Assembly (NCBI GenBank): GCA_044356455.1 | Contig: JBIKWF010000053.1 | Span: forward strand, 1 to 28,295 | Length of the DNA stretch: 28,295 nucleotides | Direction of reading: 5' to 3' | Origin: Bdellovibrionota bacterium | Lineage (GTDB): Bacteria; Bdellovibrionota_C; UBA2361; JBGSMV01 | Shown here: positions 1,710 to 28,295 of the stretch, in pieces | Position numbering within the stretch: the first letter of the stretch is position 1 | Layout of the letters: each line of letters opens with the position of its first letter | The notes under the pieces: model-generated | What the model was told of the DNA's origin: nothing | The model's database searches: none | What the model saw: the letters and a program-made list of their open reading frames with translations, nothing else | Made by a program: the position numbers and the translations under genes

Positions 1710-1738
1710 AGAGATGAATATAACTGAGCTCGGATTAT

Positions 1739-4888: not shown

Positions 4889-5539
4889 ATGATGGATCCA
4901 GGTATCATCGCAGCTTGTGTTTTCGGGACCGCCGCGCTCGCGGCGTTTATCCTCGCATATCATTTTGAGAACAAGCGAAAAGAAGCGATTAAAGCCTCTG
5001 CTCGGATTATTGGGTTTCGCTACTCAGATTGGGACGTAGCTGACTTTACTGCGGATTTGCAATCCATACCCCTAAGACAACAAGGCAGGTCCAACACAAT
5101 CTCGCTTTCTCTTGTGGGAAGGTATCAAGGACGCGAAACAGCGTTGTTTGAATTAAGCTATGTGACTGGTAGCGGAAAGAGACGGACCACTCACCGCTAC
5201 CTATGTTGCGCAGTAAAAGTCGGTCGCAATTTTCCTAAGTTCAAGCTGCGACCGGAAGGCTGGCTTGATGCGATTGGAGAGAAGCTCGGGTTCGATGACA
5301 TAGATATTAGCTCCGATCCTGAATTTTCAAAGCAATTTCATTTATCCGGCAGAGAAGCAGCTTCGCTTATACAAGCCTTCACGCCCACAATCCGTAGAAA
5401 ACTTCTTGAGTTGGGAAAAGTTGAAATTGAGGCATCCGGTGAGATGGTTGTGTATTATCGAAAGTCTCAGAAAATTGATCCCAAGAATTTGTCCGCAATT
5501 TTAGAGAGCTATTCACAAGTGCTGCGGATTTTTTTCTGA
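4889..5539 (+). CDS. Conserved hypothetical single-pass membrane protein
   Basis: One N-terminal TM segment; FKLRPEG...LGFDDIDISSDPEFSKQFHL resembles a widespread uncharacterised family; 216 aa. Confidence 0.7.
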   Translation: MMDPGIIAACVFGTAALAAFILAYHFENKRKEAIKASARIIGFRYSDWDVADFTADLQSIPLRQQGRSNTISLSLVGRYQGRETALFELSYVTGSGKRRTTHRYLCCAVKVGRNFPKFKLRPEGWLDAIGEKLGFDDIDISSDPEFSKQFHLSGREAASLIQAFTPTIRRKLLELGKVEIEASGEMVVYYRKSQKIDPKNLSAILESYSQVLRIFF

Positions 5540-5679
5540 GGAACCTCTGAAAAAGTCCTCCTTCGTGGTCTTTGTGGTCTTAGTGGTGCAGACGGGAAAT
5601 GGTAACTACTTGAATGCAAGCGCTCACCACGAAGACCACTAAGACCACAAAGTTGAGATGTAGGGTTTTCAGAGGCTCC
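5540..5679. mobile_element. MITE copy B
   Basis: GGAACCTCTGAAAAA ... TTTTCAGAGGCTCC, flanks CTGA/CTAA; internal 9-bp-periodic inverted arms GTGGTCTTT GTGGTCTTA GTGGT and ACCACGAAG ACCACTAAG ACCACAAAG. Confidence 0.8.
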
Positions 5680-5684
5680 CTAAC

Positions 5685-6605
5685 TTAGCTGCTTCTAATG
5701 ATCGTTGCCGAGCTCTCCACCTTCCCCGCACCATCCGACCAGGTAGCCACCCACGAGAATCGTCCATGAGAACTCTCTAGCAAGAGAAAGAGTGGATCTC
5801 CTGTTTTTTCATCAAACCACCGAGCTACTTTCTCGATATGCATAATCTCAATGAGCTGGGGATCTACTCTTTCAGGGCGCTCGCTATATACTCCCGCACT
5901 GGCATTGGTCCCCCACTCTGCTTGTCGAATGGTGTAAATTGTGCGAGCGATATCTCGCTTGAGATAATGCGCAAGGAGGGGCGTACGGAACTCTTCGATC
6001 GGCTTTGGATGGTGCCTCTTAAGAGCATTTACCTCACCGGCGAAGTATTCGAGCGATGGAAGGAGTGAAAACTCAAAAGGCGCTTCGCTTTTCGGATCTA
6101 CCTCGCGTACTAGAGTTGCGATAGGTAAACCGCCTCCTACCAACTGGAGCTTAGCATCAAGAAGCAAGAGTGATTTGCCATCGGGATTTCGAATCTCCGC
6201 AATAAAGCTTTCACGCGCTTCTTCTCCCGGGGCTGCGATGCTTCGAAAGTGTGTCGCAGCAACTGCCCCAACAACCGCTTCTGCACTTTGCGGGGTAGCC
6301 TCACGAGCATACGACGAGAATGCCGCGATAAGCGCTCGCCGCGAGCGGCGCTTTGCAGCCGAAACACCGCTAAGCGACTCTGGCTCTTCTCTCAATTCAA
6401 ACGCACGTTGCCGGACAACACTAGTCCTCGAAGTAAGCGGCGTCGCAAGCTGCGCCTCAGCCAATGCGACGGTATAGCTGTGTAGGAATGATTCAAATGG
6501 TGGAATTCTCGGAAGTGTCAGTGATTCCCCAGCATCTTTGGGGCTGAGATCGGGGGTCCTTCCTTTTTCTGGCTCACTCGGCTCGAATGATTGATGACTA
6601 CTCAT
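5685..6605 (-). CDS. Hypothetical protein
   Basis: 306-aa ORF filling the space between two MITE copies; no motif recognised. Confidence 0.6.
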   Translation of the reverse strand: MSSHQSFEPSEPEKGRTPDLSPKDAGESLTLPRIPPFESFLHSYTVALAEAQLATPLTSRTSVVRQRAFELREEPESLSGVSAAKRRSRRALIAAFSSYAREATPQSAEAVVGAVAATHFRSIAAPGEEARESFIAEIRNPDGKSLLLLDAKLQLVGGGLPIATLVREVDPKSEAPFEFSLLPSLEYFAGEVNALKRHHPKPIEEFRTPLLAHYLKRDIARTIYTIRQAEWGTNASAGVYSERPERVDPQLIEIMHIEKVARWFDEKTGDPLFLLLESSHGRFSWVATWSDGAGKVESSATIIRSS

Positions 6606-6752
6606 GACACGCCCTTCATGCAGAAATTCTCCAGCGACAAAACTGCATCGCGAAGAACCGCTTACAGGGGTGTAACGCTGGCGCGAGATCTAGTCAGCTG
6701 AGGGGTTCAGAACTGTCCTCAGAGAGGCTTACCGTGAAGTGGGGCATTTTAG

Positions 6753-6882
6753 GGAACCTCTGAGAAAATCTGATCTCTGAACTCGGGGCTCTGGATGGTT
6801 GATTTAAATCGTTTAAAAAACCACTGAGGACACAGAAATCACAGAGAGAAGAAATAGAATATCGCGATTTTTCGGAGGTTCC
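6753..6882. mobile_element. MITE copy C
   Basis: GGAACCTCTGAGAAA ... TTTTTCGGAGGTTCC, perfect TTAG duplication (6749-6752, 6883-6886). Confidence 0.8.
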
Positions 6883-6915
6883 TTAGTAAGTGCGCGGCAA
6901 GATGAAAGTAGACAC

Positions 6916-6949
6916 AAAAAAAGGCGGCCTACTATGATAGTAGACCGCC
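6916..6949 (-). terminator. Rho-independent terminator of nrdAB
   Basis: Minus strand GGCGGTCTACTA-TCA-TAGTAGGCCGCC followed by T7, about 40 bp after the nrdB stop. Confidence 0.85.
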
Positions 6950-6990
6950 ACATTCGACCAAGAGGTACGGTAGTTACTGAATTTCTTAGC

Positions 6991-8100
6991 CTACCACTGC
7001 AGAGCTCCGGCCGTTTGATACTCCGTAACTCTGGTCTCAAAGAAGTTTTTCTCCTTACCCAAATCGATGGTTTCGCTCATCCATGGGAAAGGATTCTTGG
7101 CGTTATACTTCGCTTTAAGCCCAATGCGCTCACGACGCCTGTCAGCAATATGGTGCACGTACTCATCAAACATCTGGTGAGTAAGTCCCATAATGCCACG
7201 TGGCAAGCAGTCTTTAGCGTACTGAATCTCGAGCTCAACTGCCTGATCAATCTTATCAGATATCTTCTGCTGGAACTCAGGCGTCCAGAGCTCTGGGGAC
7301 TCAGCTTTGATGCCATTGATAAGATCGATACCAAAGTTCAAGTGGATGGTTTCATCCCTTAGAATGTATTGGAACTGCTCTCCAATACCAGTCATTTTAT
7401 TCTGACGGTGGAAAGAGAGGATCATCACGAATCCACTATAGAAGAAGATCCCTTCCATGATCACATAGTAGCCAATCATGTTCTCAAGAAACCGCTGTGC
7501 TCCTTCCGGTGTTGCCGTGGAGAAATCTCCTCGCATGACATCAGCCGTGAGTTCCATCTCAAACTTGTCTTTGTTTCGAATGGAATTTACCTCATTATAC
7601 ATGTTGAACACCGCCCCTTGATCGAGGGACAAGGACTCCACAATGTAATGGAAGGTATGCGTGTGCACGGCTTCCTCGAAGGCTTGGCGCAGCAAATACT
7701 GGCGGCACTCAGGATTCGTCACATGCTTAAAGATGGCAAGTACGATGTTGTTACCTACCAGGCTCTCCGCGGTGCTGAAAAAGCCAAGGTTGCGCATGAT
7801 GACGTGGCGCTCGTCCGTGGTGAGCTGGTTTGATTTCCAGAGCTCAATGTCTTTGGCCATCGGAACTTCAGTGGGAAGCCAGTTGTTGTTGCAACCGTTG
7901 AGATAGTGCTCCCATGCCCACTTGTACTTGAGAGGCATAAGCTGGTTCACGTCAACCGCGTTGCAGTTGATGAGGCGTTTTTCACTGGCCTTAAATCGGC
8001 GTCCCACAGGCTGACCGGCGGAATCTGCCGCCATGGTCAAAATGGAAGAAGTCGTGGCTTCCGAATTCCCGTCATTATCATCAAAACTAAGAGTCGACAT
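6991..8100 (-). CDS. nrdB: Ribonucleotide reductase beta subunit, class Ic (R2c, Mn/Fe) type
   Basis: Ferritin-like ligands AESL, EEAVH, MEGIFF, DETIH; Phe at the radical-Tyr position (EEAVHTHTF); C-terminal [11 protein letters not shown]. Confidence 0.95.
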
Positions 8101-8242
8101 ATGTGTTCTCCTTACGATTCCCTGAAGTGAAGCTTAACTTTAAAAATTCTTCACTGCATAAAACATTTAAAGCATCCCTGCTCACGTCACCCTGAGGTGT
8201 CGATTGCTTACTTCGACGCTCAGAGCCTAGATTCCTTACTAA

Positions 8243-8352
8243 GGAGCCTCTGAAAAAGTCCCCTCTGTGAACTCTGTGGTTGATTGAAATTGTTGAAAAA
8301 CCACAGAGGACACAGAGAGAAAAATAAAATATCGGGGGTTTTCAGAGGTTCC
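8243..8352. mobile_element. MITE copy D, between nrdA and nrdB
   Basis: GGAGCCTCTGAAAAA ... GTTTTCAGAGGTTCC, perfect CTAA duplication (8239-8242, 8353-8356); arms CTCTGTGAACTCTGTGG and CCACAGAGGACACAGAG. Confidence 0.85.
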
Positions 8353-8377
8353 CTAACTTACCTCACCCCTCAAGAGC

Positions 8378-8443
8378 TCTTCTTCCGCAACCTCAACGTT
8401 CTTAGTGGTAATGCCCGAAGAACAAAGAGATCGCGGAAGGAGA
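8378..8443 (-). other. Long imperfect hairpin immediately after the nrdA stop (mRNA stability or processing element?)
   Basis: TCTTCTTCCGC pairs with GCGGAAGGAGA; inner GTTCTT/AAGAAC; no U-tract. Confidence 0.4.
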
Positions 8444-8449
8444 TACGCC

Positions 8450-11400
8450 CTATTGGCAGCTCTCGCAATTACCGTCTAAGTTGCACGCCTTCGGCATGGG
8501 AGCTGGCTCGCGTCGAGCTGGGGCAGCTTGGGCTGCTGGCTGAGCTTCCGTGCTGCTCTCCCCAGTTCTGTCTACTACAATCTCCGCCGAAGCTGATTTG
8601 TTCTTCATCCAACGCGGCTGAAGCCCACGGCGATTGGTATCCGTCGTCGATTTCTCAATCTGGGTGGCCCCAAGCGAACGGAGATAATAGGTAGTCTTTA
8701 GCCCCTTCTTCCACGCAAGCATGTACATGTCGTGGAGTTTCTTGCCAGAAGGCTGGGCAAGATAGAGGTTTAGTGACTGACCCATGTCAATCCACTTCTG
8801 GCGGCGGCTCCCGCACTCGATAATCCACTCCGGCTCAATTTCGAACGCCGTGAGATAGATCTTCTTCAGCTCTTCAGGAACCCGCTCAATCTCAGTAATC
8901 GAACCATCGAAGTACTTGAGATCGTCCAGCATGTCTGCGTCCCAAATCCCAAGCTTCTTAAGGTCATCGATCAGATACGTATTGTGCACCACGAACTCTC
9001 CGGAGAGGTTCGATTTTACGTAAAGGTGCTTGTACGCAGGCTCAATCGATTGTGCGACGCCTGTGATATTCGAGATGGTTGCCGTCGGAGCAATGGCCAT
9101 TGTGTTGCTGTTACGCATACCGAATTTCTTGAGAGACTCCCGCACGGGGGTCCAATCAAGAGTCGCGGTCGTATCGACATCAAGCATATCCGCGCCACGC
9201 TCTTCGGCAAGAATCTTAAGAGTGTCGATCGGGAGTAACCCGCGATCCCACTTCGATCCCTTGAAGCTTGCATACGCTCCACGCTCGTGGGCGAGTTGAG
9301 TTGAGCCAAGAATTGCGAAGTAGGAGATGAGCTCCATGCTCTCATCTGCAAACTTCACAGCCTCTGGACTCGCATAGCTAAAGCGCTGAATGTGCAAGGC
9401 GTCGTGGAAGCCCATGATACCAAGCCCAATCGGACGATGCTTCAAGTTCGCATTGCGAGCCTCAATGGTGGGATAGTAATTGATATCAATGACGTTATCG
9501 AGCATGCGCACTGCCGTTCGCACGGTCTTCTCGAGCAGCTTCTTATCAATGCCCTTCGCAGAAACGTGTTTCGCAAGGTTAATAGAACCAAGGTTACATA
9601 CCGCGGTCTCACCTTCGGACGTATTAAGAAGGATTTCCGTGCACAAGTTAGAGCTGTGAACAACACCCACATGATCCTGAGGCGAACGGAGGTTCGAGGG
9701 ATCCTTGAAGGTAATCCAGGGATGTCCTGTCTCAAACAACATGCTGAGCATTTTTCTCCAAAGCCCAAGAGCCTCGATACGCTTGAAGAGCTTTATCTCT
9801 CCTCGATCGGCCATCTGCTCGTACTGGGTGTAGCGCTCTTCAAACTTCTTGCCGTAGAGATCGTGCAGGTCTGGCACATCACTCGGACTAAAGAGCGTCC
9901 AAGAGCCGTTCTGGGCAACTCTCTTCATGAACAAATCAGGAATCCAGTTCGCGGTGTTCATGTCGTGAGTGCGGCGGCGCTCATCACCCGTGTTCTTTCG
10001 GAGCTCAAGGAAGTCCTCGATATCCAAGTGCCACGTCTCAAGGTAGGCACACATCGCGCCCTTGCGCTTGCCACCCTGATTCACCGCAACGGCGGTGTCG
10101 TTCGCTACCTTCAAGAACGGAATGACACCCTGACTGCGCCCGTTGGTCCCCTTAATACGGGCACCCGTAGCGCGCACATTTGTCCAATCGTTCCCGAGGC
10201 CACCAGCCCACTTCGAGAGCTGTGCATCGTCAGATACACACTTAAAGATGTGCTTCAAATCATCCATCACCGTGGTGAGGTAGCAAGAGCTTAGCTGGGG
10301 GTGCAGCGTGCCCGCATTAAAGAGCGTGGGTGTGCTCGAGGTGAAGAGAAGCTGCGAGAGCACTTGGTAGAACTCAATTGCTCTTGTGGTTCTCTCCGCT
10401 GGCTTCTCCGCGAGAGCAAGCCCCATAGCCACGCGCATCCAGAAGATTTGCGGGGTTTCAATGCGGCGATCTTCGCTGTGAATAAGGTAGCGATCGTAAA
10501 GAGTCTGGAGCCCCAGGTAGGTGAACTCAAAATCGCGGCTCAAATCCAAGGCATTCGCTATTGCCTCGAGGTCGAACTCAAGCAGCGCCTTATCGACACG
10601 CTCAACAGAAATTGCAAGCTTCAAATACTCCTTGAAGTAGGCACGATGAGCCTGCGAGAGGTTCGAATTATGCGCATCCATTCCGAACGTCTCGCGATAG
10701 ATCACATCAAGCAAGAGTCTTGCAGCTGCAAACGAGTACTCCGGCTCTTTCTCAATCTTTGCACGCGCAGCAAGCACATTGCATTGATCAACTTCATGAT
10801 GACGAATCCCCTCGTAGAAATTCTTGAGAGACTCCTCAACTATGTCCTCAACGGAAACTTCGTTCAGCCCTTTGCAAGCAAACGCGATGCGTTGGCGAAT
10901 CTCGCGTTCATTTATTACACCGGGAGAGCCATCAGCCGTGGTGATATTAAAGGAGCGCCCAGGGGCAACTGTCTCAATGGAGATTTGCCTCCTTGAAATC
11001 TCGGTAGATCCCCCAGCTTTCGCCTCTAGCTGCTCAGTACCTTCGCCTTCAGTGCGCGCCCCATCCGCTCGTGCGCTCGCTCGGCTCGCTCGGTAAATGA
11101 TGAAATCCTTCGCGACCTGAAAGAAGCCTTCCGCCATAAGTTGGCGCTCAACTTCATCTTGAATGAACTCGATATGGAGCTCAGACCCTGCTCGCGAATG
11201 CTGCACGCAGCGGTCCACCACCTTATTGGTGAGAAGATTAACCGCATCCACCACCGTCTGAGGAGTTTGCCCCTCAATCTGTAGCGATGCGCGGAACGCG
11301 CGCTCAATAGCCGAGGCAATCTTCATTGGGTTAAAGCGAACCAGCGACTTCCCGTCCCGGCGCATCACCCTCATGTTGCGAGGAGAATCGTCGCGAAGCT

Positions 11401-11866
11401 GCTTACGCTCATCTCTATAAACGATGTACGTGCGAGCGACCTCATAGTTCCCGCTCTGCATGAGCTTTACTTCAACAACGTCTTGAATGCCCTCAACGGT
11501 TAGGCTTACCCCAGAGCGGGCCTGGGTCTCGCACTCTTTGGAGACTTCTGCCGCAATCGATTGAACGGCGCTGTAAATGTCTTGGGGAAGAGGGGAAGTT
11601 GCTGGGATCTTTTTCTCGTCACGAAAGGCCGCTTCAATCGCAGAAAATATTCGGTCACGGCGAAATGGCACAAGCATACCATTTCTCTTGACCACGGTGA
11701 GGGTCATCGGACGGGAGGAAGAACCAACATCGATCACGCGCTCCTCTTTGCCGGAAGCGCCTCTGCCCGAGGGAATCTTCCCCCCACTGGCCTTTGACGC
11801 TGTATCTCGAAGAGCAGTTGCTGCTGTTTCACCCTCATTTCTTGCTGAATCACCGCTTAGCGACAT
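8450..11866 (-). CDS. nrdA: Ribonucleotide reductase alpha subunit with tandem N-terminal ATP-cones
   Basis: [35 protein letters not shown]-terminal CESCQ; cones begin VVKRNG, VMRRDG and a degenerate ITTADG. Confidence 0.97.
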
Positions 11867-12126
11867 ACGATTTCACCCATCCCAAACGCTACAAAAGATC
11901 TCTCAACGACGAATGGAAAGCGCGCCCTATTTCAACCGGCCTAAAGGAACTCGACCAAGAAGCAAAGGCGAATACAGCCATTATTTCAACAAGTTACGCC
12001 GAACGTCGTCACTAATAAGGTGTGTCAATCAAGACTCCCCGCTCGCAACAAGAGAAAAAAAACCAATATTTTCAAACTATTAAAAACTTAGCTTGCTCGG
12101 CGCTACTGGCTAACGAACGCTGAAAA

Positions 12127-12174
12127 CCACTACATATTGTGTTGATGCGCGTCTTCCAACACAAGATGTATGAG
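12127..12174. promoter_or_regulatory. Tandem NrdR boxes
   Basis: CCACTACATATTGTGT (12127-12142) and ACACAAGATGTATGAG (12159-12174), 32 bp apart start to start, upstream of nrdA; they match the acaCwAtATaTwGtg-type consensus. Confidence 0.8.
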
Positions 12175-12308
12175 ATGAGGCCATCCGTGTAAATGGGGAA
12201 AGCCAAGGTTGTACACGATAAAATTACCCCTCAAATAGTAACTCATTAGATCTACATAGAGTCGCATTTTGGAATGTCGTTCTGGAGTCGTCGTTTGCGC
12301 ACTCGGAG

Positions 12309-12340
12309 TTTTCAACAATTGACCACAGGCATGTGGAGAA
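12309..12340. promoter_or_regulatory. Cluster of DnaA-box-like 9-mers upstream of nrdA
   Basis: TTTTCAACA, TTGACCACA and inverted TGTGGAGAA, each 1-2 mismatches from TTATCCACA; DnaA control of nrdAB is known in E. coli. Confidence 0.35.
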
Positions 12341-12462
12341 GGCCTTTAAGTAATCGCAATCATTATTCTTGCGAATTTCCTAACCAATTCCTAACAATTC
12401 AAGAGGTAAGGGGCTGCAGACAATAAGGAGTTCATCCGATACTCCACACTGGAGCTTGCCGC

Positions 12463-13533
12463 ATGAATTCAGATTTGGCGAAGGACCGCCTCGTTACTCA
12501 CGCACTCACCAATTACTTGGCGGCCGCGTACCATGGCAAATTTGCTGCGCTCAATATCCTCGCGCAGCTCGACCACCCCGCCTTCACCGAGGCGGAGCTG
12601 ATGGCAACTCAACAAACACTCGGCAAAGTCTTCAACTGGAATAGCCAACTTTTCAAAGATGAGTGTCTCTTCTCTGCTTCTTGGACAACGCCTGAAACGT
12701 TTGAGGCTCAAAATGCGGTATCGCTCCTTGAGCAGCTGAAACCCGAGCTCTATAAAATCTCGGCTGAGTCAGGGCGAATCCTCGCGCTTGATACCCTACC
12801 CCAAAAGGACGAACTCGCGATTTTGATTGCGTTCCACGCTCGTCACGCCTATTCGCGCGATGCCTATGTCCGTGGCTTCATGGAATATGGGGAGAAATTT
12901 TCCCGGCCTGAGATGGTGAAGCGCTACGAGCCTTTTATTCCAGAGAGCGAGTTTGAACTTCGCCGAAACAATGAACTAATACTGCTACTCAAGAATGCGA
13001 AGGGCGACATTTCCCTTCTGCCCAAAGAATATTTCGCATTGCTCTTTCAGACCGCGGTACCGCTTCCTTCATATTTTCGAAGCCACGTCCACGATATCAA
13101 TCAGCTCCTGTGCCCCTACAAGGGAGGTCTCTCGTGGACAACGGCCGAGTTTTCCAAGGCAGAAGCGGAGATGTGGAACACGGCTGGGCTTGGTCCTTCT
13201 GCAGCTGGCTATTTTAGAGCCTTTGGTATGGGCCCTGATGAAGCGGGCAAATGGCGAGAGGGCGGAGTTTCCGATGCAATGACCGCAATCGAGTGGAAAA
13301 AAGGCGGCTTCACTCCCGAAACTGCAAAGCCTTGGCTCGATGAGGGAATCCCACCTCCGCTTGCCTTCATGTGGTCACAGAATCAATTCTCCCCCACTGA
13401 AGCGAAAGAGTTCATCAGCAAGGGGACGTTTCAGCCCCCACCTCGCGACACTGTACCGCGCAAGCGCGAAAAGCCCGAGGCTCCCCCCGCAATTCCGCCG
13501 CCGAAAAAGATGTCCTTCCCTAAGAAGATTTAA
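12463..13533 (+). CDS. Hypothetical protein with C-terminal Trp-containing ~13-aa repeats and a Pro/Lys-rich tail
   Basis: Repeats FSKAEAEMWNTAG, LGPSAAGYFRAFG, MGPDEAGKWREGG, FTPETAKPWLDEG, IPPPLAFMWSQNQ, FSPTEAKEFISKG; GGAG upstream. Confidence 0.75.
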   Translation: MNSDLAKDRLVTHALTNYLAAAYHGKFAALNILAQLDHPAFTEAELMATQQTLGKVFNWNSQLFKDECLFSASWTTPETFEAQNAVSLLEQLKPELYKISAESGRILALDTLPQKDELAILIAFHARHAYSRDAYVRGFMEYGEKFSRPEMVKRYEPFIPESEFELRRNNELILLLKNAKGDISLLPKEYFALLFQTAVPLPSYFRSHVHDINQLLCPYKGGLSWTTAEFSKAEAEMWNTAGLGPSAAGYFRAFGMGPDEAGKWREGGVSDAMTAIEWKKGGFTPETAKPWLDEGIPPPLAFMWSQNQFSPTEAKEFISKGTFQPPPRDTVPRKREKPEAPPAIPPPKKMSFPKKI

Positions 13534-13536
13534 GCC

Positions 13537-13941
13537 CTACCTTTTGGGCGCGCAAAACTCGGTAAGAACCCCAAGCGTGGACTTGGGGTGCAAGAACGCA
13601 ATGCTCTTATTTCCTGCTCCATCAACGGGAGTCTCGTTTATAAGAGCACAGCCGGCACTCTTAGCCTGCGCGAGCTGGTCCGGGAGGTCGTCCGTGGCAA
13701 AGGCGACATGATGAATTCCTGGTCCATTCTTGTCCAAGAATTTCTGCACTGTGCTATCGGGGGACGTGGGCTCAAGAAGTTCAAGGTGCATCTCCCCAAT
13801 TTTGAGGAAAGCGGTCTTCACCTTTTGGGAAGGCACTTCTTCGATGCGCTCGCAGGAAAGTCCTAGCGCCTTTTCATAAAAAGGAAGCGCCTCAGCAATC
13901 GAGCGCACGGCAATCGCAATATGATCAACTTTCTTTAGCAT
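13537..13941 (-). CDS. mce: Methylmalonyl-CoA epimerase (VOC family)
   Basis: VDHIAIAV, LELLEP, GPGIHHVAF, AFLHPKSTLGVLTEFC; start moved to ATG 13941 (RBS GAAGGA) from the track's 13959. Confidence 0.93.
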   Translation of the reverse strand: MLKKVDHIAIAVRSIAEALPFYEKALGLSCERIEEVPSQKVKTAFLKIGEMHLELLEPTSPDSTVQKFLDKNGPGIHHVAFATDDLPDQLAQAKSAGCALINETPVDGAGNKSIAFLHPKSTLGVLTEFCAPKR

Positions 13942-14014
13942 CGAATATCCTTCGCACAAAAGATGCAGCCATTCCCCTATGGCGCCCGATAGAAATGGTC
14001 CAAGTTACGACCAG

Positions 14015-14243
14015 GGAGCCTCTGAAAAACTCCCCCTCCGCGTCCTCCGTGTCCTCCGCGTTACTTGAAAACTATTGAATAACGCAGAGCCGTCTACGCC
14101 TTACGGCTGCGCCGAGCCAGGCTTCAGTGCGGCCGCGGCGCAGCTTTGGCGGAGCCGGGGACGCCGGGGACGCCGGGGACGCCGGGGACGCCGGGGAAAA
14201 ACAGGACAGAAGAAGTTAAATTTCTAGGTTTTTCAGAGGTTCT
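14015..14243. mobile_element. MITE copy E, expanded by an internal insert and a tandem repeat
   Basis: GGAGCCTCTGAAAAA ... TTTTTCAGAGGTTCT; flanks CCAG/CTCG; left arm CCTCCGCGT CCTCCGTGT CCTCCGCGT. Confidence 0.75.
14154..14197. repeat. 9-bp tandem repeat (GCCGGGGAC), four full units plus one partial
   Basis: Read directly; lies in the right arm of MITE E. Confidence 0.95.
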
Positions 14244-14368
14244 CTCGAGACCCCAAGGGCTTCGTCATACTACTGAACGAAGGAACCTTACCGGTACATT
14301 ACTAACACTACCTCTTTCCGTTCGCCACGAGGAAGCGAGGATTTACATTGTCTGTCTCGCTTAGAAAA

Positions 14369-14706: not shown

Positions 14707-15750
14707 CTAAAAGCGATAGGTCAGCGCTGCTTTGATGCGATAAGAAGCCACGGCTTGAAGGCCTGTGTTGTTAATATCCAAAGGAAACTCGCCGCCTAGC
14801 TCAGCACTAAGCGAGTCGCCAAAAGTGGCCCCGATCGAGGGCCCCCAAAAGAGCGATCTAATGCCGGTGTCGTCTTGCCGAACGCCCGAGGCCTCGTCTT
14901 TCCCTTTGTACTCACCGGAAAGTGAAACCTTTCCGTAGAGCGTGGTCGTATGCGATGAGAGGAAATAATAACCGACTCCCGACCTCCACATAAAATCGTT
15001 GTCGTAGCGGTAACCAAAATCGCCGCCTGTGCGGAAGGTGTAAGAGAAATCCGCGTCTGCGAGCCATTTATCGGCAACTACTAAAACACTTCCACCAAAA
15101 GGAAAGTCATACGAACCAGAGCCAAGCGCTAAGTCGTGCCCGTGAATGGCGCTTGCCACGCCATGCTCCTCATCCCCATGCCTGAACTCGGAATGATGAT
15201 CGCTCACCATCTCCTCATCGTGCCCTACTTCCTCATGTCCCGCATCCTCATGATGAGACTCGGAAAGCTCTTCAGCTAAGCGGTCGGAATCCCCGGTGGG
15301 TAGCTTTATTCCGGCAAAAAGGTGCCAGACCACATTTACTTCACCACTTCGATAGTTATAGGGAGAAATTTTCCCCAAGACCGTAAGATCTCCCACGCCG
15401 CTCTCGCTGCCCCTCTCGCGCGCTCCGCCCTCGAATCGGCGAAAAGAGCGGTTGATATAAGGCAGCACTACCTGAACACCAAACTTCTCATTGAAGTCAT
15501 ATTCAGCAACAAATTGGGTAATTGAACTCTCCATGCGTTGGTGATCGTCATTCGGGGCATACGCACCGGTGTCTTGGATCTTATCAAAGACCGTAAACTG
15601 CTCGGCGATGGAAAGCTTAAGCGAGTTGGGTTCTGCAGCCTGCACATCAACTGAAGAGTAGATGGCACAAAGGTCACACGCCGATGCGGAATTCGTGGCA
15701 CCGAAGACAATAGAAAGCGCAGCAGCCCAATAGCACAGCCCAGTTTTCAT
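14707..15750 (-). CDS. Outer-membrane beta-barrel transporter-like protein with mature N-terminal CxxC and a His-rich loop
   Basis: Signal peptide ending ASA, then CDLC; SGVGDLTV, GIKLPTGDS, LALGSGSYD motifs; loop SHHEDAGHEEVGHDEEMVSDHHSEFRHGDEEHG...IHGHD; ends LTYRF. Confidence 0.75.
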   Translation of the reverse strand: MKTGLCYWAAALSIVFGATNSASACDLCAIYSSVDVQAAEPNSLKLSIAEQFTVFDKIQDTGAYAPNDDHQRMESSITQFVAEYDFNEKFGVQVVLPYINRSFRRFEGGARERGSESGVGDLTVLGKISPYNYRSGEVNVVWHLFAGIKLPTGDSDRLAEELSESHHEDAGHEEVGHDEEMVSDHHSEFRHGDEEHGVASAIHGHDLALGSGSYDFPFGGSVLVVADKWLADADFSYTFRTGGDFGYRYDNDFMWRSGVGYYFLSSHTTTLYGKVSLSGEYKGKDEASGVRQDDTGIRSLFWGPSIGATFGDSLSAELGGEFPLDINNTGLQAVASYRIKAALTYRF

Positions 15751-22461: not shown

Positions 22462-22556
22462 CAATCGTCCTAAATCTGTCCTAAACATACCAACGCCGAG
22501 GCTATCCGGCTGCCACCCCAACATGTAGTGGTAGAACTTTTCTACGGGACAGGCTC

Positions 22557-22607
22557 CTAGCCGTCATATCTCACGGAATCCCTTCGGGTCCGTGAGATTA
22601 CCGTTGG
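22557..22607. repeat. CTAG-initiated palindromic element, copy 1
   Basis: CTAGCCGTCATATCTCACGGA-ATCCCTTCGGG-TCCGTGAGAT; the first 36 nt are 34/36 identical to 28136-28171. Confidence 0.8.
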
Positions 22608-22629
22608 AATTTGGCCATCCGAGCGTTAG

Positions 22630-22678
22630 CTAGCCTGATCATCTCCCAGCCCCAAGGGCTGTGAGACGATCAGGCTAG
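22630..22678. repeat. Related CTAG-bounded 49-bp palindrome
   Basis: CTAGCCTGATCATCTCCCAGCCC-CAA-GGGCTGTGAGACGATCAGGCTAG; 23-bp arms with 2 mismatches. Confidence 0.8.
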
Positions 22679-23094
22679 GACCCATATTATAGTGAGCGCA
22701 ACCCCAAGTTGCAGTAGTGCCCGCGCCATTGGCCTGATCTTCTCAGTAGTCCTTCGACGAACTACTCCCCCTGACGACGTCATCTAACAACCATGCGGGC
22801 AAGAGTGTCCCCGCAATTAGTCAGTGCACTTCAAAATTCAGACTGTGGATACCCCCATAACCCAGCCCCCTTCTGCTGAATCGGCCAGCGGAGCCCCTAT
22901 TTCTCAGATATTGCCCAACACCTCAAAAAAACTACACCCTCTCTCTATGCTTCAATCTCTTCAAACAACAATCCTACGACAATTTCGTAACTTACTAATT
23001 TCCTTTAAAAAGAATGATTTACTTACACACTATTCTTTTGTCTTGAATGCAGGGCAGCTAGCAAATTACTCTTAGGTGTCCTCAGGAGCTCGCT

Positions 23095-24453
23095 ATGACT
23101 GTAAAATTGCCTTATCGATTCGTCTGGAATGAGGCACATAATGTTGTGGTGGTAATGTCGTCTGACGCGGCGGGTTATGATGGTACACTTAATGGGACCG
23201 CGGGAAACATTTTTCAGCAACTAGCAACAACTCCGGAACGTTGCGATGCTCTTGCTGGTCGCTATCCGGAATTTTTTGCCGAATGCCGAAATCTCGGGCT
23301 TCTCCGAGCGGATAATTTGTTGAATGGCGTTCTCACGCGATACCACGGTCAGAATCAGCTTAAATCTATTCAAATTGAATTGACTAGGACATGCAACCTT
23401 CGCTGTCCCTATTGCCATTCGGAAAGTGGCCCTTGGCACAAGAAGTCCGGAATCTCCCTTGAGTCCCTGCGAGAGCTTTTGACGCAGGCTGCAGACCTCG
23501 GCTGCATGACGGTTGATTTTACAGGAGGCGAGCCGTTAGTGCATCGCCATTGGTATGAAGTTCTATCGTTTGCTCGCCAACTCGGTTTGGTTGTTACACT
23601 GCATAGCAATGGAACCCTATTGAGCGAGGCGGTCTTGCAGCGTCTCTCAAGCCTCCCCTTGAGGCATCTCCAGGTCTCTCTTGACTCGCACCTTCCTGAT
23701 GTGCACGACGCCTGCCGTGGCATGCCAGGGGCGTGGGCAAAATCAATTCAAGCAATCCGAAGGGCCAAAGAGCTCGGTATGCGCGTACGTGTAGCCATAG
23801 TTGCTCATAGTAAGAATCGCGACCATTTTAGAGAGGCCGTGACTTACTTTGAATCAGAGCTAGGCGTTTCAGTAAACATGGATAGAGTAGTCAACGTAGG
23901 GGGCGAGAGGACTGCTCATTGGGGGCTAACTACCAGTGAATATTATGAGCTAATTGCTCCTTTGTTAAGAGGGCGCGCAGTAAGTACTCGGGTTTGTGAA
24001 ACAGCAGTTCAAGACTTGAATATGTCCCGAATTGAGCCAAACTGTGGCGTTGCTCATAGCCTTCTCTATGTTACGGCTGACGGAGAAATCGCTCTTTGTC
24101 CCACGATGACGTCAAGAAATAATCCTGAATTTAAATCTCCCTTGCTCACCGACATGGACCTGAGAACGGCATGGGAGGAGAGCGATTATTTTATTGGACA
24201 TCGGTTTCTAAACTGTAGAAATGTGAATATTTGCCCAAGTGGCCGTAGCTGTGGAGGAGGCTGCCGCTCAAACGCTTATAGGGAGACGGGAGAAATAGAC
24301 AGTCCCGACCCTCTACATTGTAATGTGAATAAGAACCCTAGCGAGACTTTTGTTGATTTTCTTGCGGAATACAAACGACAAGGCAGCGAAGTTGCTCCTC
24401 GTGCTCTCGTTCGGATAGGCGAGCGCCTCCGAATGGGGTCTACAGACATGTGA
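23095..24453 (+). CDS. Radical SAM/SPASM peptide maturase with N-terminal RRE (PqqD-like) domain
   Basis: CNLRCPYC (CX3CX2C), FTGGEP, VSLDS...HD..RG, SPASM cysteines CGVAHS...GEIALCP...CRNVNICPSGRSCGGGCR...DPLHC; N-terminal strands plus LNGTAGNIFQQL; RBS AGGAG. Confidence 0.92.
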   Translation: MTVKLPYRFVWNEAHNVVVVMSSDAAGYDGTLNGTAGNIFQQLATTPERCDALAGRYPEFFAECRNLGLLRADNLLNGVLTRYHGQNQLKSIQIELTRTCNLRCPYCHSESGPWHKKSGISLESLRELLTQAADLGCMTVDFTGGEPLVHRHWYEVLSFARQLGLVVTLHSNGTLLSEAVLQRLSSLPLRHLQVSLDSHLPDVHDACRGMPGAWAKSIQAIRRAKELGMRVRVAIVAHSKNRDHFREAVTYFESELGVSVNMDRVVNVGGERTAHWGLTTSEYYELIAPLLRGRAVSTRVCETAVQDLNMSRIEPNCGVAHSLLYVTADGEIALCPTMTSRNNPEFKSPLLTDMDLRTAWEESDYFIGHRFLNCRNVNICPSGRSCGGGCRSNAYRETGEIDSPDPLHCNVNKNPSETFVDFLAEYKRQGSEVAPRALVRIGERLRMGSTDM

Positions 24454-24551
24454 GGAAGGCCTTGGGGCTACTTTTTCATGGCCCTGAGCATCGGCTTTTT
24501 CTAGACTCAGCTGCCATCCTTCGGGTATCGTTCTCTTGAACAATCCCCGAC

Positions 24552-24566
24552 TGGCATGTGGATTGT
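24552..24566 (+). promoter_or_regulatory. Candidate sigma-54 promoter for the small peptide gene
   Basis: TGGCATG-TGGA-TTGT versus consensus TGGCACG-N4-TTGC; correct spacing, -12 C replaced by T. Confidence 0.35.
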
Positions 24567-24596
24567 GTGAAAGTTTAAGATAAGAGGAGAGCGCCT

Positions 24597-24776
24597 ATGG
24601 GACCCCGCCTGTCAGAATTTGATTTAGGATCGCAAGAAGTAACCGCTGACTCCGAAGTGAAGGAGAATAACTCCCCTGTCACCGAAGAGGAGGCTCCCCG
24701 TATTATTGAGCTTAAGAAGTCAATCGACCTCCCACGTCTTGCGAGGGAAGGAATGTGCAGGCCGCATCTTGACTAA
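24597..24776 (+). CDS. Putative RiPP precursor peptide, 59 aa
   Basis: Absent from the ORF track (shorter than any ORF listed). Strong RBS AAGAGGAG; MGPRLSEFDLGSQEVTADSEVKENNSPVTEEEAPRIIELKKSIDLPRLAREGMCRPHLD*; directly downstream of the RRE-rSAM-SPASM gene. Confidence 0.75.
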   Translation: MGPRLSEFDLGSQEVTADSEVKENNSPVTEEEAPRIIELKKSIDLPRLAREGMCRPHLD

Positions 24777-24791
24777 AAAGGTTCGGCACTC

Positions 24792-24865
24792 AGAATCCTG
24801 GTGTCCAGCGTGCCCCTCGCAGCTGTAATCTAAGCGAGCTTGGGGATCGCTAGCACCGGGGCTCT
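24792..24865 (+). other. Long imperfect stem-loop downstream of the precursor gene
   Basis: Nested pairings CCTGGTG/CACCGGG, AGCG/CGCT, CCCC/GGGG, TCGC/GCGA. Confidence 0.5.
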
Positions 24866-25063
24866 TGTTGGGGAAATCTCTGAAATAGTTCTCCTTCATA
24901 GTCAAAGTGGCGGCATTAGGCCTTAGTGGCCGTCTCTGTGTGCACCCTCACCAGGAAGACTACTTATTCACATAACCAATTTCAGGGGTAGGGGGATAGA
25001 GGCTCCAGAAATCTGCGGCTGTTTGTTAATAAGAATCCGCCCCAGAAAACGGTAGAGATTTTT

Positions 25064-25918
25064 GTGTCCGAACACACCATTCACTTTAGACTGAAAAACC
25101 CCCCACGTCCGAACCTTGAATGGAAGGTGGACGCACAGTGCTCTCCTGAAGAAGTTGCACAGTTCGCGTCCGAAGGGTTCCTGCTACGGCAGGATCTTTT
25201 CTCCTCGGCGCAGATTGCGGAAATGACGCGTGCCGTGGATGAGCTTGCAGAGAGGGAAAGAGCACAGGGAGTAGCAGAAATAACAAGGTGGGGTCAGTAC
25301 GTGGCCTTACTTTTAGATAAACATCCTGTTTTCAGAGATCTAATTTACCACAAAACACTTATCTCGATTGCCCGCGCAATGCTCGGCCCCCAGATTCAAT
25401 TTGACGTGGTAGACGCGAGAATTACTGACAATCCCGCAGAGGTAGTTGAATGGCATGTACATAGCCAGTGCATTTACGAGCCTCTGCCACCATTCTTTTG
25501 TTACCCACACGCGATACATTGCCTTCTCTTTCTAGACCCTATCGACGCAAGTAACGGGCCACTTTGCGTTCTGCCAGGCTCTCATCAACGCTATCGCGAA
25601 GATGTTCCAACGGGACCTGCTAAACATTCCGATATTCCGGGTCAACGGATAATGAATCTAAGTGCAGGTACCTGCGTATTGACACATTCGCATCTTTGGC
25701 ACAGGACCATTCCCGCAAAGGGTGTTGGTTTTAGACGCCGCATGTTGATAATCGGTTTTCTCCCCGCATGCGTAAAACCTTTTGCCAACCACTACGAAAA
25801 ATTGGACCTGTCTGTTGCAGCATCAAAAGATTTATTCCGTCAAAGACCAACCGAGGTACTACGCCGTGGTCCAGATGCTGAAATTCGCGAACTGCTTGGT
25901 GAATTCAACTGGCCCTAA
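25064..25918 (+). CDS. Phytanoyl-CoA dioxygenase (PhyH)-fold oxygenase with an atypical HxH motif
   Basis: QFASEGFLL..DLFS, EWHVHS, LFLDPIDASNGPLCVLPGSH, AGTCVLTHSHLWHR, RRML. Confidence 0.85.
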   Translation: MSEHTIHFRLKNPPRPNLEWKVDAQCSPEEVAQFASEGFLLRQDLFSSAQIAEMTRAVDELAERERAQGVAEITRWGQYVALLLDKHPVFRDLIYHKTLISIARAMLGPQIQFDVVDARITDNPAEVVEWHVHSQCIYEPLPPFFCYPHAIHCLLFLDPIDASNGPLCVLPGSHQRYREDVPTGPAKHSDIPGQRIMNLSAGTCVLTHSHLWHRTIPAKGVGFRRRMLIIGFLPACVKPFANHYEKLDLSVAASKDLFRQRPTEVLRRGPDAEIRELLGEFNWP

Positions 25919-25949
25919 CCGAGAATGGCGCACGCTGGCTCGTTCCTAC

Positions 25950-26543
25950 TCAATTAAATCCGAAGACCTGTACTAGTCGACAATTTTCCAACGTGTCGCC
26001 GAAATTCATAGTGTGGGAATGCCAGAGCAATCCCTGAAAAAGAACCAGCCGATTGAACTTCATCGGCACCCTCATCACCTCGGTCCAACGCGCTCGATCG
26101 CGGCCTTCTTCCCATCCCACCCTTTCAATCATCTCGTCAAAGCTCGCAAATCCGGCCGCTTCGTACTCCGCCTTGCTGGGCGCCCATTCCCACCCATAGC
26201 GTTTATGCTGCCAAAACGAGAGGCCCCCGTCGGGGTCCGGAGGATTGCTAAGAAATACGATAGCTCCCCAGACGGTGCTATCGACGTGAATATCAGTAGG
26301 GGCCTTGTCCGAAGCGAAAGAGCGTTTGAAAGTCCCAAATTTTACACCAGGAACTGGCTGAGGGGGGCGGCCAATTAGGCTCTGAAAATACTGCGTAGTA
26401 CCATCTGGTACAATTGCTGGCGCCACCATTCCAGCATATTGCGCCCCCTCTTTTCGGTGCCAAGAGGCCCGGAGCGCTTGATTTCGCACCGCTAAGGGGT
26501 CGCCGTAGAAATTGTCAACGACCACAAGCGATTTAAATGCCAT
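25950..26543 (-). CDS. DUF6445-like Fe(II)/2-oxoglutarate oxygenase-fold protein
   Basis: VVVDNFYGDPLAVRNQAL, IHVD, GAIVFLS, GGLSFW, KFNRLVLF...WHS...FG....RLVQVF (HxD...H...R); start probably ATG 26543 or 26549 rather than 26621. Confidence 0.8.
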   Translation of the reverse strand: MAFKSLVVVDNFYGDPLAVRNQALRASWHRKEGAQYAGMVAPAIVPDGTTQYFQSLIGRPPQPVPGVKFGTFKRSFASDKAPTDIHVDSTVWGAIVFLSNPPDPDGGLSFWQHKRYGWEWAPSKAEYEAAGFASFDEMIERVGWEEGRDRARWTEVMRVPMKFNRLVLFQGLLWHSHTMNFGDTLENCRLVQVFGFN

Positions 26544-27080
26544 AAGCATTACCAATTCTACGGAGTCATAATTTAATGCCTTCCGCCGGCCTCGCTGCCG
26601 CTTCAGCGCAGGCGGATTCAACTTCTTATTACTCTCTATGAGTTCAACAAGGCGAACACGAAGTAAAGAGGCAAGTTCCCCCGTATTTTAGAAAACCCTC
26701 GGGCTACGAAAAACTATCATGAACGCTTAATGAGTCGCACGCCTGAGTTGCGTGAGTTCGCCGAGCCAAAGGCAATTCTCAACCTGCTTACCTGTCCTTT
26801 AGAGCCCAACTCCTAAAGGGTTCTCAAAGGCCTGTAGACGAGGGGTAATCGACCACTATTCTTGCATAACTATCTAATATTTTTAAGTTTAACTAATAGA
26901 AGACTCTGTGGTTTACCTGCCGAAGCCGGAGCGAATCAATCAGGCGCATCTAACGCTTTCGGGGCCAAATGACCGCTATATTTTAGGCACCCCGAGAGTG
27001 CTAATTTACTCTTCGGTAGGTGTAAACATCCCGCATTTGTTGGTCGATATCTACCTAATGCAAATGGGAGGCATCGAGCA

Positions 27081-28139
27081 ATGACTCAGAGGAATATGAC
27101 CAGAAAGGAGAACCCGCCGCCGGTAGTCCCCCCGCATGATAAAGTCGAGCCTAGTTCTGCGTATGACTTATTGTGCACACCAGTCTCTAATTCTGCACTC
27201 GGAACTGCTCCCGTGGAAACAGACCAGCCTCTGACGAAAGGTATTGTGCGGCTTTTTGGTGATATTGTCGGAACCCCTAGAGATATTCGTCACATTACTG
27301 ACTTTGGGATGGTCAACTCAGTTTTCCGGATAGCTGGGGAAAATGGGGGCAACTTTATTGTCCGCTCATTTCCTGGAGATCAAGGTGTTTTGGACTATGA
27401 AAAAGAGGACTGGTCAATGCGTAAGGCCGCCGGATGCGGAGTACCCGTCTCGACCGTTCGTGGCATCGGCTACCATGACGGTCACTCCTACATGATCCAA
27501 GACCTCTTGCCTGGGGTCAACGGGGCCAGCATTTCAGATCCCGCGGGACGACTTGCCATTTGGAGACAACTGGGGAATTTCTCAAGCCTTCTGGGCGATG
27601 TTCGATGCTCCGGATATGGATGGTCACTTAATAAGGACTCAGAGCGGTTTTCTTGTGAGTCCTGGAGCGCCTTTATCGCTCAGGCTGAGGCGCAAGCATT
27701 AGGCGACCCCTCGATGAATGCGGGGGTTTTCACCCGCGCGCAGAGAGAGAAGCTTCGGGGACTCTTTGAAATTTTAGCGAATATGGATCCTCAGCCCGTA
27801 CTGTGTCACGGCGATATCGGACCCAGTAACTGCATAGTGGATCCAGAAACCCTGAAAATTAATGGTATTATTGATTGGGAGATGGCTGTTGCTGCGCCTG
27901 GGGCTCATGCTTCGCTGGTGAGCGCTTCCACGTACTTCAAGCGGCCAGAAGAACAAGCCGCATTTCTGGAAGGCATGGGCCAACCCACATTTCTTCAGGA
28001 CCCTCAAACGCAAGCTGAGTTCCGTGCACTTCGCGTTCTTTTCGTACTTTATTTCGCAGCGTACAATTTGGGCAATCGTGATGCGGTCAATGGTGCGCAG
28101 CGCAGAGTTGCTGGGGCGATTGAAGAGGCGCGTATCTAG
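27081..28139 (+). CDS. Aminoglycoside phosphotransferase/choline kinase-like (APH-family) kinase
   Basis: GMVNSVF, YEKE, GVPV, LCHGDIGPSN (Brenner motif), GIIDWE; RBS GGGAGG. Confidence 0.85.
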   Translation: MTQRNMTRKENPPPVVPPHDKVEPSSAYDLLCTPVSNSALGTAPVETDQPLTKGIVRLFGDIVGTPRDIRHITDFGMVNSVFRIAGENGGNFIVRSFPGDQGVLDYEKEDWSMRKAAGCGVPVSTVRGIGYHDGHSYMIQDLLPGVNGASISDPAGRLAIWRQLGNFSSLLGDVRCSGYGWSLNKDSERFSCESWSAFIAQAEAQALGDPSMNAGVFTRAQREKLRGLFEILANMDPQPVLCHGDIGPSNCIVDPETLKINGIIDWEMAVAAPGAHASLVSASTYFKRPEEQAAFLEGMGQPTFLQDPQTQAEFRALRVLFVLYFAAYNLGNRDAVNGAQRRVAGAIEEARI

Positions 28140-28171
28140 CCGTCATGTCTCACGGGATCCCTTCGGGTCCG
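28136..28171. repeat. CTAG-initiated palindromic element, copy 2, interrupted by the intron
   Basis: CTAGCCGTCATGTCTCACGGGATCCCTTCGGGTCCG; identity with copy 1 stops exactly where the intron end begins; its CTAG contains the kinase stop codon. Confidence 0.8.
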
Positions 28172-28295
28172 GTAGAGTCGAATTCAGGGCGCGGCGTCCG
28201 CGCCGTGCGGCGCGCGCCGATTCCCTGCATCCGCTCATCGAACCGGACGTGCGGCTTTCCCGCATCCGGCTCTCCGATGGAGTTCTTACGACGCC
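28172..28295 (-). mobile_element. 3' end of a group II intron (domains V and VI); the rest lies beyond the right edge
   Basis: Reverse complement reads GAGAGCCGGATGCGGGAAAGCCGCACGTCCGGTTCGATGAGCGG (domain V, AGC triad, GAAA loop), a GC-rich domain VI hairpin and terminal ...CGACTCTAC. Confidence 0.92.

Follow-up and report, generated by a model that had tools for sequence, protein, structure and literature searches.

A radical-SAM enzyme, a short peptide and a three-histidine PhyH-fold oxygenase form a candidate enteropeptin-like module in a Bdellovibrionota genome

RESULTS AND DISCUSSION

A candidate peptide-modification locus at the end of a contig

Contig JBIKWF010000053.1 of a Bdellovibrionota bacterium (GenBank assembly GCA_044356455.1), whose 28,295 nucleotides are the window analyzed here, encodes near its right end a radical S-adenosylmethionine (rSAM) enzyme, a 59-residue peptide and a PhyH-fold oxygenase. 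Genes for a DUF6445 protein and a kinase follow. The five genes, all inside 5 kb, have a core methylmalonyl-CoA mutase operon on one side and the end of the contig on the other. A sequence-only reading of this DNA had proposed that the five genes produce a peptide that is made by ribosomes and then modified after translation (RiPP). All five open reading frames (ORFs) are intact and lie where that reading placed them. Pfam models above cut-off are Radical_SAM, PhyH, DUF6445 and APH, and the peptide has no Pfam match. The main features are as follows.

23095–24453, + strand: rSAM-SPASM maturase with an N-terminal RiPP recognition element (RRE), 452 residues (Pfam, alignment, AlphaFold model, 58% identical paralog on contig C103)
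24583–24589, + strand: AGAGGAG, resembling a ribosome-binding site, 7 nt before the peptide ATG (sequence)
24597–24776, + strand: precursor peptide, 59 residues, with an acidic leader and one Cys near the C terminus (C103 paralog; gene call in public collections)
24684–24722, + strand: leader block EEEAPRIIELKKS, residues 30–42, predicted RRE-binding segment (identical in both paralogs; complex model)
24750–24767, + strand: core GMCRPH, with Met53 at 24753–24755 (precursor comparison; metagenome contigs)
25064–25918, + strand: PhyH-fold non-heme iron oxygenase, H131-x-H133...H213, R225/R226 (Pfam, alignments, 52% identical C103 paralog)
25950–26621, − strand: DUF6445 oxygenase, H112-x-D114...H201, of uncertain membership (Pfam; C135 paralog)
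27081–28139, + strand: APH/choline-kinase-like phosphotransferase, probably outside the pathway (Pfam; NCBIfam; family-locus survey)

The window is the whole of contig C204 of a 4.7-Mb genome in 216 contigs. The GC content of the five-gene stretch is slightly low (0.49–0.52 versus 0.53–0.55), and a same-genus genome (G001) gave no close counterpart of any of the five genes with these queries. Scans for promoters (9 versus 5.2 ± 2.4) and terminators (7 versus 5.9 ± 2.7) were near chance, and no exporter was identified for the window pathway.

The rSAM enzyme resembles RiPP maturases

The rSAM protein scores 91.9 bits against PF04055, with its CxxxCxxC motif at C100, C104 and C107. Eight cysteines in the SPASM region (C301, C317, C335, C374, C380, C386, C390 and C409) are kept in all 73 aligned rSAM proteins, C409 being present in each of the 72 rows that reach that far. 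They follow the pattern CX5CX5CX3C plus an additional upstream Cys, and the family profile aligns to the SPASM domains of CteB and PqqE. Pfam does not call SPASM on the window enzyme, although it does so on 62 of the 73 aligned relatives. Pfam PqqD matches neither this protein nor any of the 73 relatives, so the assignment of an RRE rests on predicted structure. Residues 7–66 of the AlphaFold model form three strands and then three helices, giving an RRE-type fold over approximately residues 1–85. The model aligns over its full length, N-terminal domain included, to SuiB and CteB (437–457 columns), and an Atlas comparison found a PqqD-family model at a TM of 0.57, below its naming bar. The PqqD-like N terminus and SPASM domain of the earlier reading survive as a modeled fold and a conserved cysteine set, not as Pfam calls. 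A conserved precursor gene lies next to the enzyme gene, as expected for RRE-dependent rSAM/SPASM RiPP maturases.

In NCBIfam the enzyme has 88 matches, and for each of the best 25 its score falls well short of the family cut-off. StsB comes first (NF045574; 113.8 versus a cut-off of 625), and the PqqE score is 113.6 versus 381 bits (TIGR02109), with genes for PhyH, DUF6445, APH and methylmalonyl-CoA mutase as the neighbors. Scores for MftC (TIGR03962; 90.3 versus 265 bits), SkfB (66.8 versus 300) and AlbA (65.4 versus 850) are lower. These values uphold the proposal that the enzyme and the peptide are a maturase–precursor pair outside the pyrroloquinoline quinone (PQQ), mycofactocin, SCIFF and subtilosin systems, and no curated NCBIfam family is reached.

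Directly after the CxxxCxxC motif, the window enzyme alone has a histidine, His108; in each of the 72 aligned relatives the residue is Tyr or Phe. This position is named as active-site-facing (PMC10288494). Contigs from two other lake-metagenome runs show no differing letter at His108.

A sister cluster in the same genome

The peptide, rSAM and PhyH genes recur together on contig C103 of the host genome, at 48%, 58% and 52% identity, respectively. This paralogous trio supports the earlier inclusion of the PhyH gene in the RiPP module. In a quick tree of 74 rows, the two rSAM proteins are sisters (SH-aLRT 99) inside a 14-row clade (support 95) that includes locus L012, whose core is GRCPP; the end branch of the window enzyme is not lengthened (0.39 versus 0.49 for its sister). 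The two peptides are identical at 27 of 58 aligned residues and have in common the 13-residue block EEEAPRIIELKKS and the motif CRPH, the cores being GMCRPH in the window and SRCRPH on C103. Different codons specify 14 of the 27 identical residues, including the Cys and the Arg that follows it, as well as 164 of 255 identical residues in the rSAM and 95 of 147 in the PhyH protein. Because synonymous changes are this frequent at identical positions, the peptide ORF, the rSAM and the PhyH gene appear to be selected as proteins.

On C103 the order is peptide, small ORF, rSAM and PhyH. The opposite strand encodes a B12-dependent rSAM, an FKBP isomerase, an arginase and a methyltransferase, and past an intron remnant lie a second PhyH gene, a TldD/PmbA pair and a GNAT gene. 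The only arginase and methyltransferase of the family type in the host genome are those on C103, and TldD/PmbA-type pairs are found there and on C117. The sequence-only reading saw no protease in the window; the C103 pair, which it overlooked, is a candidate, and TldD/E-type proteases trim leaders with little sequence preference and are often encoded outside the cluster (PMC10885120). The C103 cluster (L009) spans 360–14144, with a B12-dependent rSAM of 754 residues and a 127-residue ORF that has a signal-peptide-like start, and is probably the richer experimental target.

The precursor peptide and its leader

The window peptide has one Cys in 59 residues, ends in HLD and matches no NCBIfam model. 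Cys54 aligns with the single invariant residue of 12 aligned precursor sequences. At the position of Met53, each of the 12 other precursors found has Arg. Ser42 excepted, there is no Ser, Thr or Tyr in the core after the leader. Contigs of three other lake-metagenome runs carry the core, Met codon included, without variant or frameshift.

In a model of the complex, peptide residues 32–44 contact rSAM residues 17–39 and 57–67. The score is 0.78, whereas the best of three controls gave 0.00; the mark applied is reached by 116 of 157 solved pairs and by 2 of 215 mismatched ones. At least 39% of the contacts are common to the runs, and the partner pLDDT is at least 43. Since RRE–leader complexes are already solved, passing this mark may reflect likeness more than binding. 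From the modeled contacts, we consider it very likely that the RRE of the maturase binds the leader block. Both the leader and core patterns occur in 2 of 25,967 short ORFs genome-wide, but this count is circular because the patterns came from these two peptides, and it is not taken as evidence.

A wider family with arginase and Arg-Cys precursors

A search with the single rSAM sequence returned 194 matches, of which 79 proteins fall below 1e-69 and the next lies at 1e-28; this sharp gap is partly an index effect, and an exhaustive profile search gives a continuum into a wider group. The survey yielded at least 17 family loci (C103, 9 among 80 loci from genomes and 7 among 80 from metagenomes), to which the counts below refer. 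They include the close pairs L096/L097 and L015/L094. Named hosts belong to Actinomycetota, Acidobacteriota, Myxococcota and Pseudomonadota.

A precursor was identified in 12 of the 17 loci, and Arg stands directly before Cys in every one of them. The cores are GRCPP, SRCPG, SRCPP, SRCPT, SRCPA, GRCPS, GRCKP, SRCRP and, at a contig edge, a partial ARCPP. GRCPP is present as three cores in L012, as seven in L013 and in three genes in L096. In the remaining five loci, several of which are short or begin at the rSAM gene, no precursor was identified. A PF00491 arginase accompanies the rSAM in 16 loci (15 by tblastn and L020 by Pfam); the exception, L098, has only ∼700 bp of downstream sequence. 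The C103 methyltransferase is matched in 12 loci, and Fe oxygenases are found in five. Homologs of the DUF6445 protein and of the kinase occur in none of the 17. The window locus has neither an arginase nor a methyltransferase, and no ThiF gene was seen there or among scanned neighbors in the family loci. The neighborhoods of rSAM homologs, proposed earlier as a check, support the precursor and, on C103, the PhyH trio, but not the DUF6445 and kinase genes. 

Apart from the seed, none of 400 sampled Actinomycetota genomes yielded a further family locus. Plasmids gave none, and nor did viral contigs, whose 78 loci are all distant. The 123 other genomes of the host phylum gave one weak rSAM match (1.5e-52), in a different multi-rSAM locus. 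Sampled Bacilli genomes (groups of 10 and 8) yielded one distant rSAM only, L263. Its short upstream ORF has a similar leader-like motif and a Thr before the first Cys, and no arginase-like ORF was seen in 11.7 kb. L263 offers weak support as a second case of a non-Arg core without arginase. In this locus (G523:C9, 5858–11397), which is close to ParA- and Rgg-like genes, a 38-residue ORF with the C-terminal sequence GTCHC is accompanied by two rSAM genes and an ABC transporter.

Several other loci have features of their own. In cultured Bradyrhizobium tunisiense, L013 (10772–11449, minus strand) encodes a precursor with seven EAGRCPP cores, next to which lie an arginase and two methyltransferases; repeated cores are seen also in L012 and L018. 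Metagenomic locus L096 (1–8745) combines its three precursor genes with two JmjC oxygenases and one PhyH oxygenase, and L095 (2228–7872, metagenome) has a PhyH gene with HlyD and a C39-peptidase ABC exporter. The family rSAM of Nocardiopsis eucommiae (L019, 6911–8247) is split into two pieces that overlap, the second match containing a stop, and may be broken or mis-sequenced.

A PhyH-fold oxygenase with three histidines

The window PhyH protein matches PF05721, yet it does not carry the H-x-D/E...H facial triad; its motif is H131-x-H133...H213, with His133 aligned to the Asp of EctD WHSD. The sequence-only call of a PhyH-fold oxygenase is borne out by Pfam, with a metal motif other than HxD...H. 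Histidine replaces the Asp ligand in all 60 aligned homologs and in 78 of the 80 found. Each of the 35 matches of solved structure is distant (best E 7e-16). H-x-D is the motif in the four alignments shown and also in all five other PhyH- or hydroxylase-type proteins checked in the family loci. Three-histidine sites occur in thiol dioxygenases. In titles and abstract openings of the literature, no description of such a three-histidine PhyH-fold enzyme and no characterized clade member was found.

Because the PhyH gene accompanies the peptide and rSAM genes in two copies, the enzyme probably acts on the peptide. Among 124 genomes of the phylum, only this one carries the clade, and plasmid matches are distant. 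The clade comprises ∼80 proteins with an invariant W-H-x-H...H, and the nearest Atlas clusters are commonest in Poribacteria. Trp236 is Cys in two rows of the 60-row alignment, namely the window and C103 copies.

A proposed pathway

Enteropeptins (the KGR family) are described from KgrA–D of Enterococcus cecorum, with the core KGRCPP, and enteropeptin D is described from Streptococcus thermophilus; the gene types are an rSAM, a PF00491 arginase and a SAM methyltransferase (PMC12395415, PMC12445099, PMC12703449). The sequence-only reading overlooked the conserved partners of the family, namely the arginase, the methyltransferase and the Arg-Cys precursors, and hence the likeness to this known system. 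We propose, at roughly even odds, that the rSAM, the peptide and the PhyH protein form a three-gene peptide-modification module that works like the enteropeptin pathway.

If this proposal is correct, then the N-terminal RRE-type domain would grip the leader block, and the rSAM would abstract a hydrogen at the Cα of Met53, which the sulfur of Cys54 would capture to give a six-membered thiomorpholinone ring. The general sactipeptide route lies behind this Cys-to-Cα step (PMC12973295). Arguing by analogy, we lean modestly toward a thioether ring between Cys54 and the Met53 Cα. The three-histidine PhyH enzyme would then oxidize either sulfur or one of the CRPH core residues, and the leader would probably be cut off in trans, with the TldD/PmbA pair on C103 as one candidate. 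No arginase or N-methyltransferase would be needed because the acceptor is Met and not Arg. Arg, arginase and methyltransferase are all lost at the window locus, where the enzyme also has His108. A more tentative idea, which we find rather doubtful, is that the maturase switched its acceptor from Arg to Met (Tyr108 to His) and that the PhyH enzyme performs a reaction new to RiPPs, such as oxidation of the sulfur of the thiomorpholinone or of Met, or of the Arg-Pro-His tail.

Several observations weigh against this pathway. The link between losing Arg and losing the arginase rests on the window locus and the weak, distant L263. Sequence similarity does not settle the chemistry because PqqE and StsB score alike. 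With eight invariant SPASM cysteines, both auxiliary clusters might be fully ligated and have no iron site free to bind the thiol of the substrate; in CteB, such a site has this role. Pro-Thr follows SPASM residue C335 in the window enzyme, whereas StsB-family proteins have Lys-Leu. The window PhyH clade is represented in only one of the 17 family loci, by the C103 paralog. The likeness to enteropeptins consists of the core and the gene types as described, and not of a sequence comparison with KgrC or KgrD. A profile of 13 family arginases, in a search with limited word-index sensitivity, found no Enterococcus- or Streptococcus-named protein among its best 120. Finally, KgrB is described as an Fe-S methyltransferase (PMC12703449, PMC10373908), whereas neither methyltransferase type of the family has a conserved Fe-S cysteine set: Nine sequences have only the Cys of the GCG SAM-binding motif and five have none.

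Alternative explanations

The same RiPP module might perform other radical chemistry, forming a thioether at a β or γ carbon or at another residue, epimerizing a residue, or desaturating one (for example, His57 to didehydrohistidine). The eight invariant SPASM cysteines would fit such reactions, no curated family is reached, and the likeness to KgrC is by description only. Furthermore, KgrC, SkfB and AlbA share a clade with C-O, C-C and rearrangement enzymes (PMC10288494). Streptococcal GRC peptides carry didehydrohistidine and a Cys thiolactone (PMC13361665), and the host genome has a ThiF-family gene beside a DUF6445 paralog. However, Cys is the only invariant precursor residue and most family cores lack His. 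In addition, the set of arginase, methyltransferase and GRCPP matches that of enteropeptin, whose arginase requires the ring first (PMC12703449), and no ThiF gene accompanies the window or scanned family loci. We judge such other chemistries to be somewhat unlikely.

The sequence-only reading assigned all five genes to one pathway, with a cross-link, two hydroxylations (by the PhyH and DUF6445 proteins) and phosphorylation by the kinase. The genes do share 5 kb, a slightly lower GC content and a lack of close counterparts in G001. The DUF6445 gene encodes a convergent oxygenase with an HxD...H motif, as had been stated, and faces the PhyH gene across 31 nt; its paralog on C135, 58%–62% identical, is directly upstream of the ThiF-family gene. 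The kinase keeps its HGD and DWE motifs. The single five-gene pathway nevertheless fails against the family survey, in which the DUF6445 and kinase genes are missing from every locus, the sister cluster included. The core offers no hydroxyl residue beyond Ser42, and the kinase gene, divergent from the DUF6445 gene, is 459 nt away from it. The two best relatives of the kinase among the 124 phylum genomes adjoin a nucleoside diphosphate kinase and a histidine-kinase-like gene, in surroundings of housekeeping type. A five-gene pathway is accordingly unlikely. Taken singly, the DUF6445 protein may conceivably take part, with the odds against it, and the kinase is unlikely to do so.

Identification of the kinase as an APH(3′) aminoglycoside resistance enzyme was rejected, as its best NCBIfam APH match scores 32.3 versus 450 bits and it falls far below every APH resistance cut-off. 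No solved relative of the DUF6445 protein and no literature naming DUF6445 was found. The ThiF-family protein on C135 (L010, G000:C135, 347–2147) has 367 residues, a long N-terminal extension and a weak match to thiazole/oxazole-modified microcin (TOMM) leader binding. The C135 pair may belong to another RiPP locus; the 3.4-kb contig carries no precursor.

It is also improbable, in our estimation, that the window genes are a relic duplicate of the C103 cluster that lost Arg and has no product, or that the window enzymes now serve the C103 peptide. A single base change would turn AGG into ATG, Met replaces a residue kept in all 12 other precursors, and His108 is unique among 73 enzymes. The only such arginase and methyltransferase of the genome are on C103, and leader cross-talk is plausible because both peptides share the 13-residue block. 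In contrast, all 11 cluster cysteines and all reading frames are intact despite a split that must be old, since the paralogs are 57%–58% identical, and the branch shows no lengthening. Different codons often specify the residues that are identical, among them Cys and the Arg after it, and the contigs of three other runs hold no variant or frameshift.

That the locus is not a RiPP at all, with an rSAM that matures a cofactor or a protein and a small ORF that is incidental, is very improbable: NCBIfam likeness to PqqE and heme-synthesis rSAM enzymes does equal that to peptide maturases and Pfam PqqD matches none of the 73, but 12 of the 17 loci have a precursor with the Cys motif next to the enzyme (up to seven cores in L013), the peptide is kept with the enzyme in the paralog, and an RRE-type fold and leader contact are modeled.

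Flanking repeats and other features of the window

22557–22624, + strand: dispersed palindromic element resembling repetitive extragenic palindromic (REP) sequences, left copy (67 matches, 50 contigs)
28136–28171, + strand: second copy of the palindromic element, overlapping the kinase stop codon and cut by an intron (repeat comparison)
28172–28295, − strand: 3′ end (domains V–VI) of a multicopy group II intron, at which the contig ends (RF00029)

The near-identical repeats said to bracket the genes do exist (22557–22597 and 28136–28176, 90% identical), but they are not specific to the cluster: The palindromic element has 67 BLAST matches on 50 of the 216 contigs. The right copy is cut at 28172 by the group II intron (RF00029 at 28172–28274; 48 bits versus a gathering score of 40). 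Eight 3′ ends of this intron are present in the genome, all beside the palindrome or its remnant. The repeats account for the contig break and give no information on the borders of the cluster. An interpretation as cassette ends or attC-like sites was rejected: the elements form no array but are scattered across 50 contigs, and they serve as targets of the intron.

The intron ends lie in either orientation in the window (28136–28295) and on C37, C55, C90, C103, C150 and C198, and the intron appears to target the dispersed REP-like family. More intergenic repeat families occur in the window at 22500–22680, 4645–8366, 14002–14245 and 24860–25020, two of them with 139 and 22 genome matches, and the genome is rich in short palindromic elements at gene ends. 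A 9-nt tandem repeat, GCCGGGGAC, of about five units lies between genes at 14154–14198. Three ORFs of 289–356 residues have no Pfam match (12463–13533, 14707–15750 and 2876–3745); the ORF at 14707–15750 has a His-rich insert and the look of an outer-membrane protein, and adjoins a two-component pair.

Implications

The window locus leads to an uncurated family with an enteropeptin-like core and gene logic that extends over several phyla, the host's own included, and often has extra oxygenases. One genome holds a natural pair, comprising a cluster with Arg, arginase and methyltransferase and a Met cluster with neither. Two 59-residue peptides would thus allow direct tests of the tolerance for different acceptors and of cross-talk between the leaders. 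For the three-histidine oxygenase, the likely substrate is encoded next door. If the more tentative idea of an acceptor switch and a new oxidation is true, then the ∼80-protein uncharacterized clade would gain its first defined substrate, and thiomorpholine sactipeptides, described only from Enterococcus and Streptococcus in the parts of the cited literature available, would extend to at least five phyla.

Comparison with known systems

SkfB and AlbA act on multi-cysteine, hairpin-type precursors. The predicted window leader pairs with strand 3 of the RRE, as does the leader of CteA in CteB. SkfB (PDB 6EFN), StsB and AlbA have the same RRE-rSAM-SPASM/Twitch layout as the window enzyme, and SkfB is its best solved relative both by profile (E 3e-33) and by fold. 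StsA likewise has multiple cysteines and hairpin-type rings (PMC10288494), whereas the window peptide has a single Cys. SuiB (5V1T) and CteB (5WGG) match the window enzyme structurally over its full length, but at 14%–20% identity. SuiB makes Lys-Trp links (the streptide-type linkage of PMC13361665) and CteB is a ranthisynthase (PMC10288494); neither precursor type is present at the window locus. The PhyH protein shares its fold family and the distal His and Arg pattern with the Fe(II)/2-oxoglutarate oxygenases of the EctD (3EMR)/7DZZ group, which have an Asp ligand where the window clade has His.

The streptococcal GRC family is named for its GRC motif, and its rSAM acts on a short core containing Cys and His. 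The window core differs in having no Thr or C-terminal Glu, and its locus has no ThiF gene. SCIFF ranthipeptides have six cysteines in ∼45 residues compared with one in 59 here, and the mycofactocin precursor ends in Val-Tyr (PMC10288494) rather than HLD. No description of the wider rSAM family or of the Met variant was found in the literature covered, most subscription journals being outside that scope. In its spreadsheet supplement, PMC10288494 contains no "cecorum", no GRCPP precursor and neither of two family accessions. 

Enteropeptins offer the closest parallel. The family relatives of the window locus share their core (GRCPP or SRCP.), their gene types and a single Cys near the C terminus. 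Enteropeptin hosts are gut Bacillota, unlike the four phyla of the named family hosts, and no Enterococcus- or Streptococcus-named relative is among the matches listed. The match in core and gene types makes a common origin of the family and the enteropeptin system likely. The window locus itself differs by its GMCRPH core, by having no arginase or methyltransferase, and by the added three-histidine PhyH enzyme. By three tested features, namely core, arginase and methyltransferase, it is not a member of the enteropeptin system, but it probably works like one.

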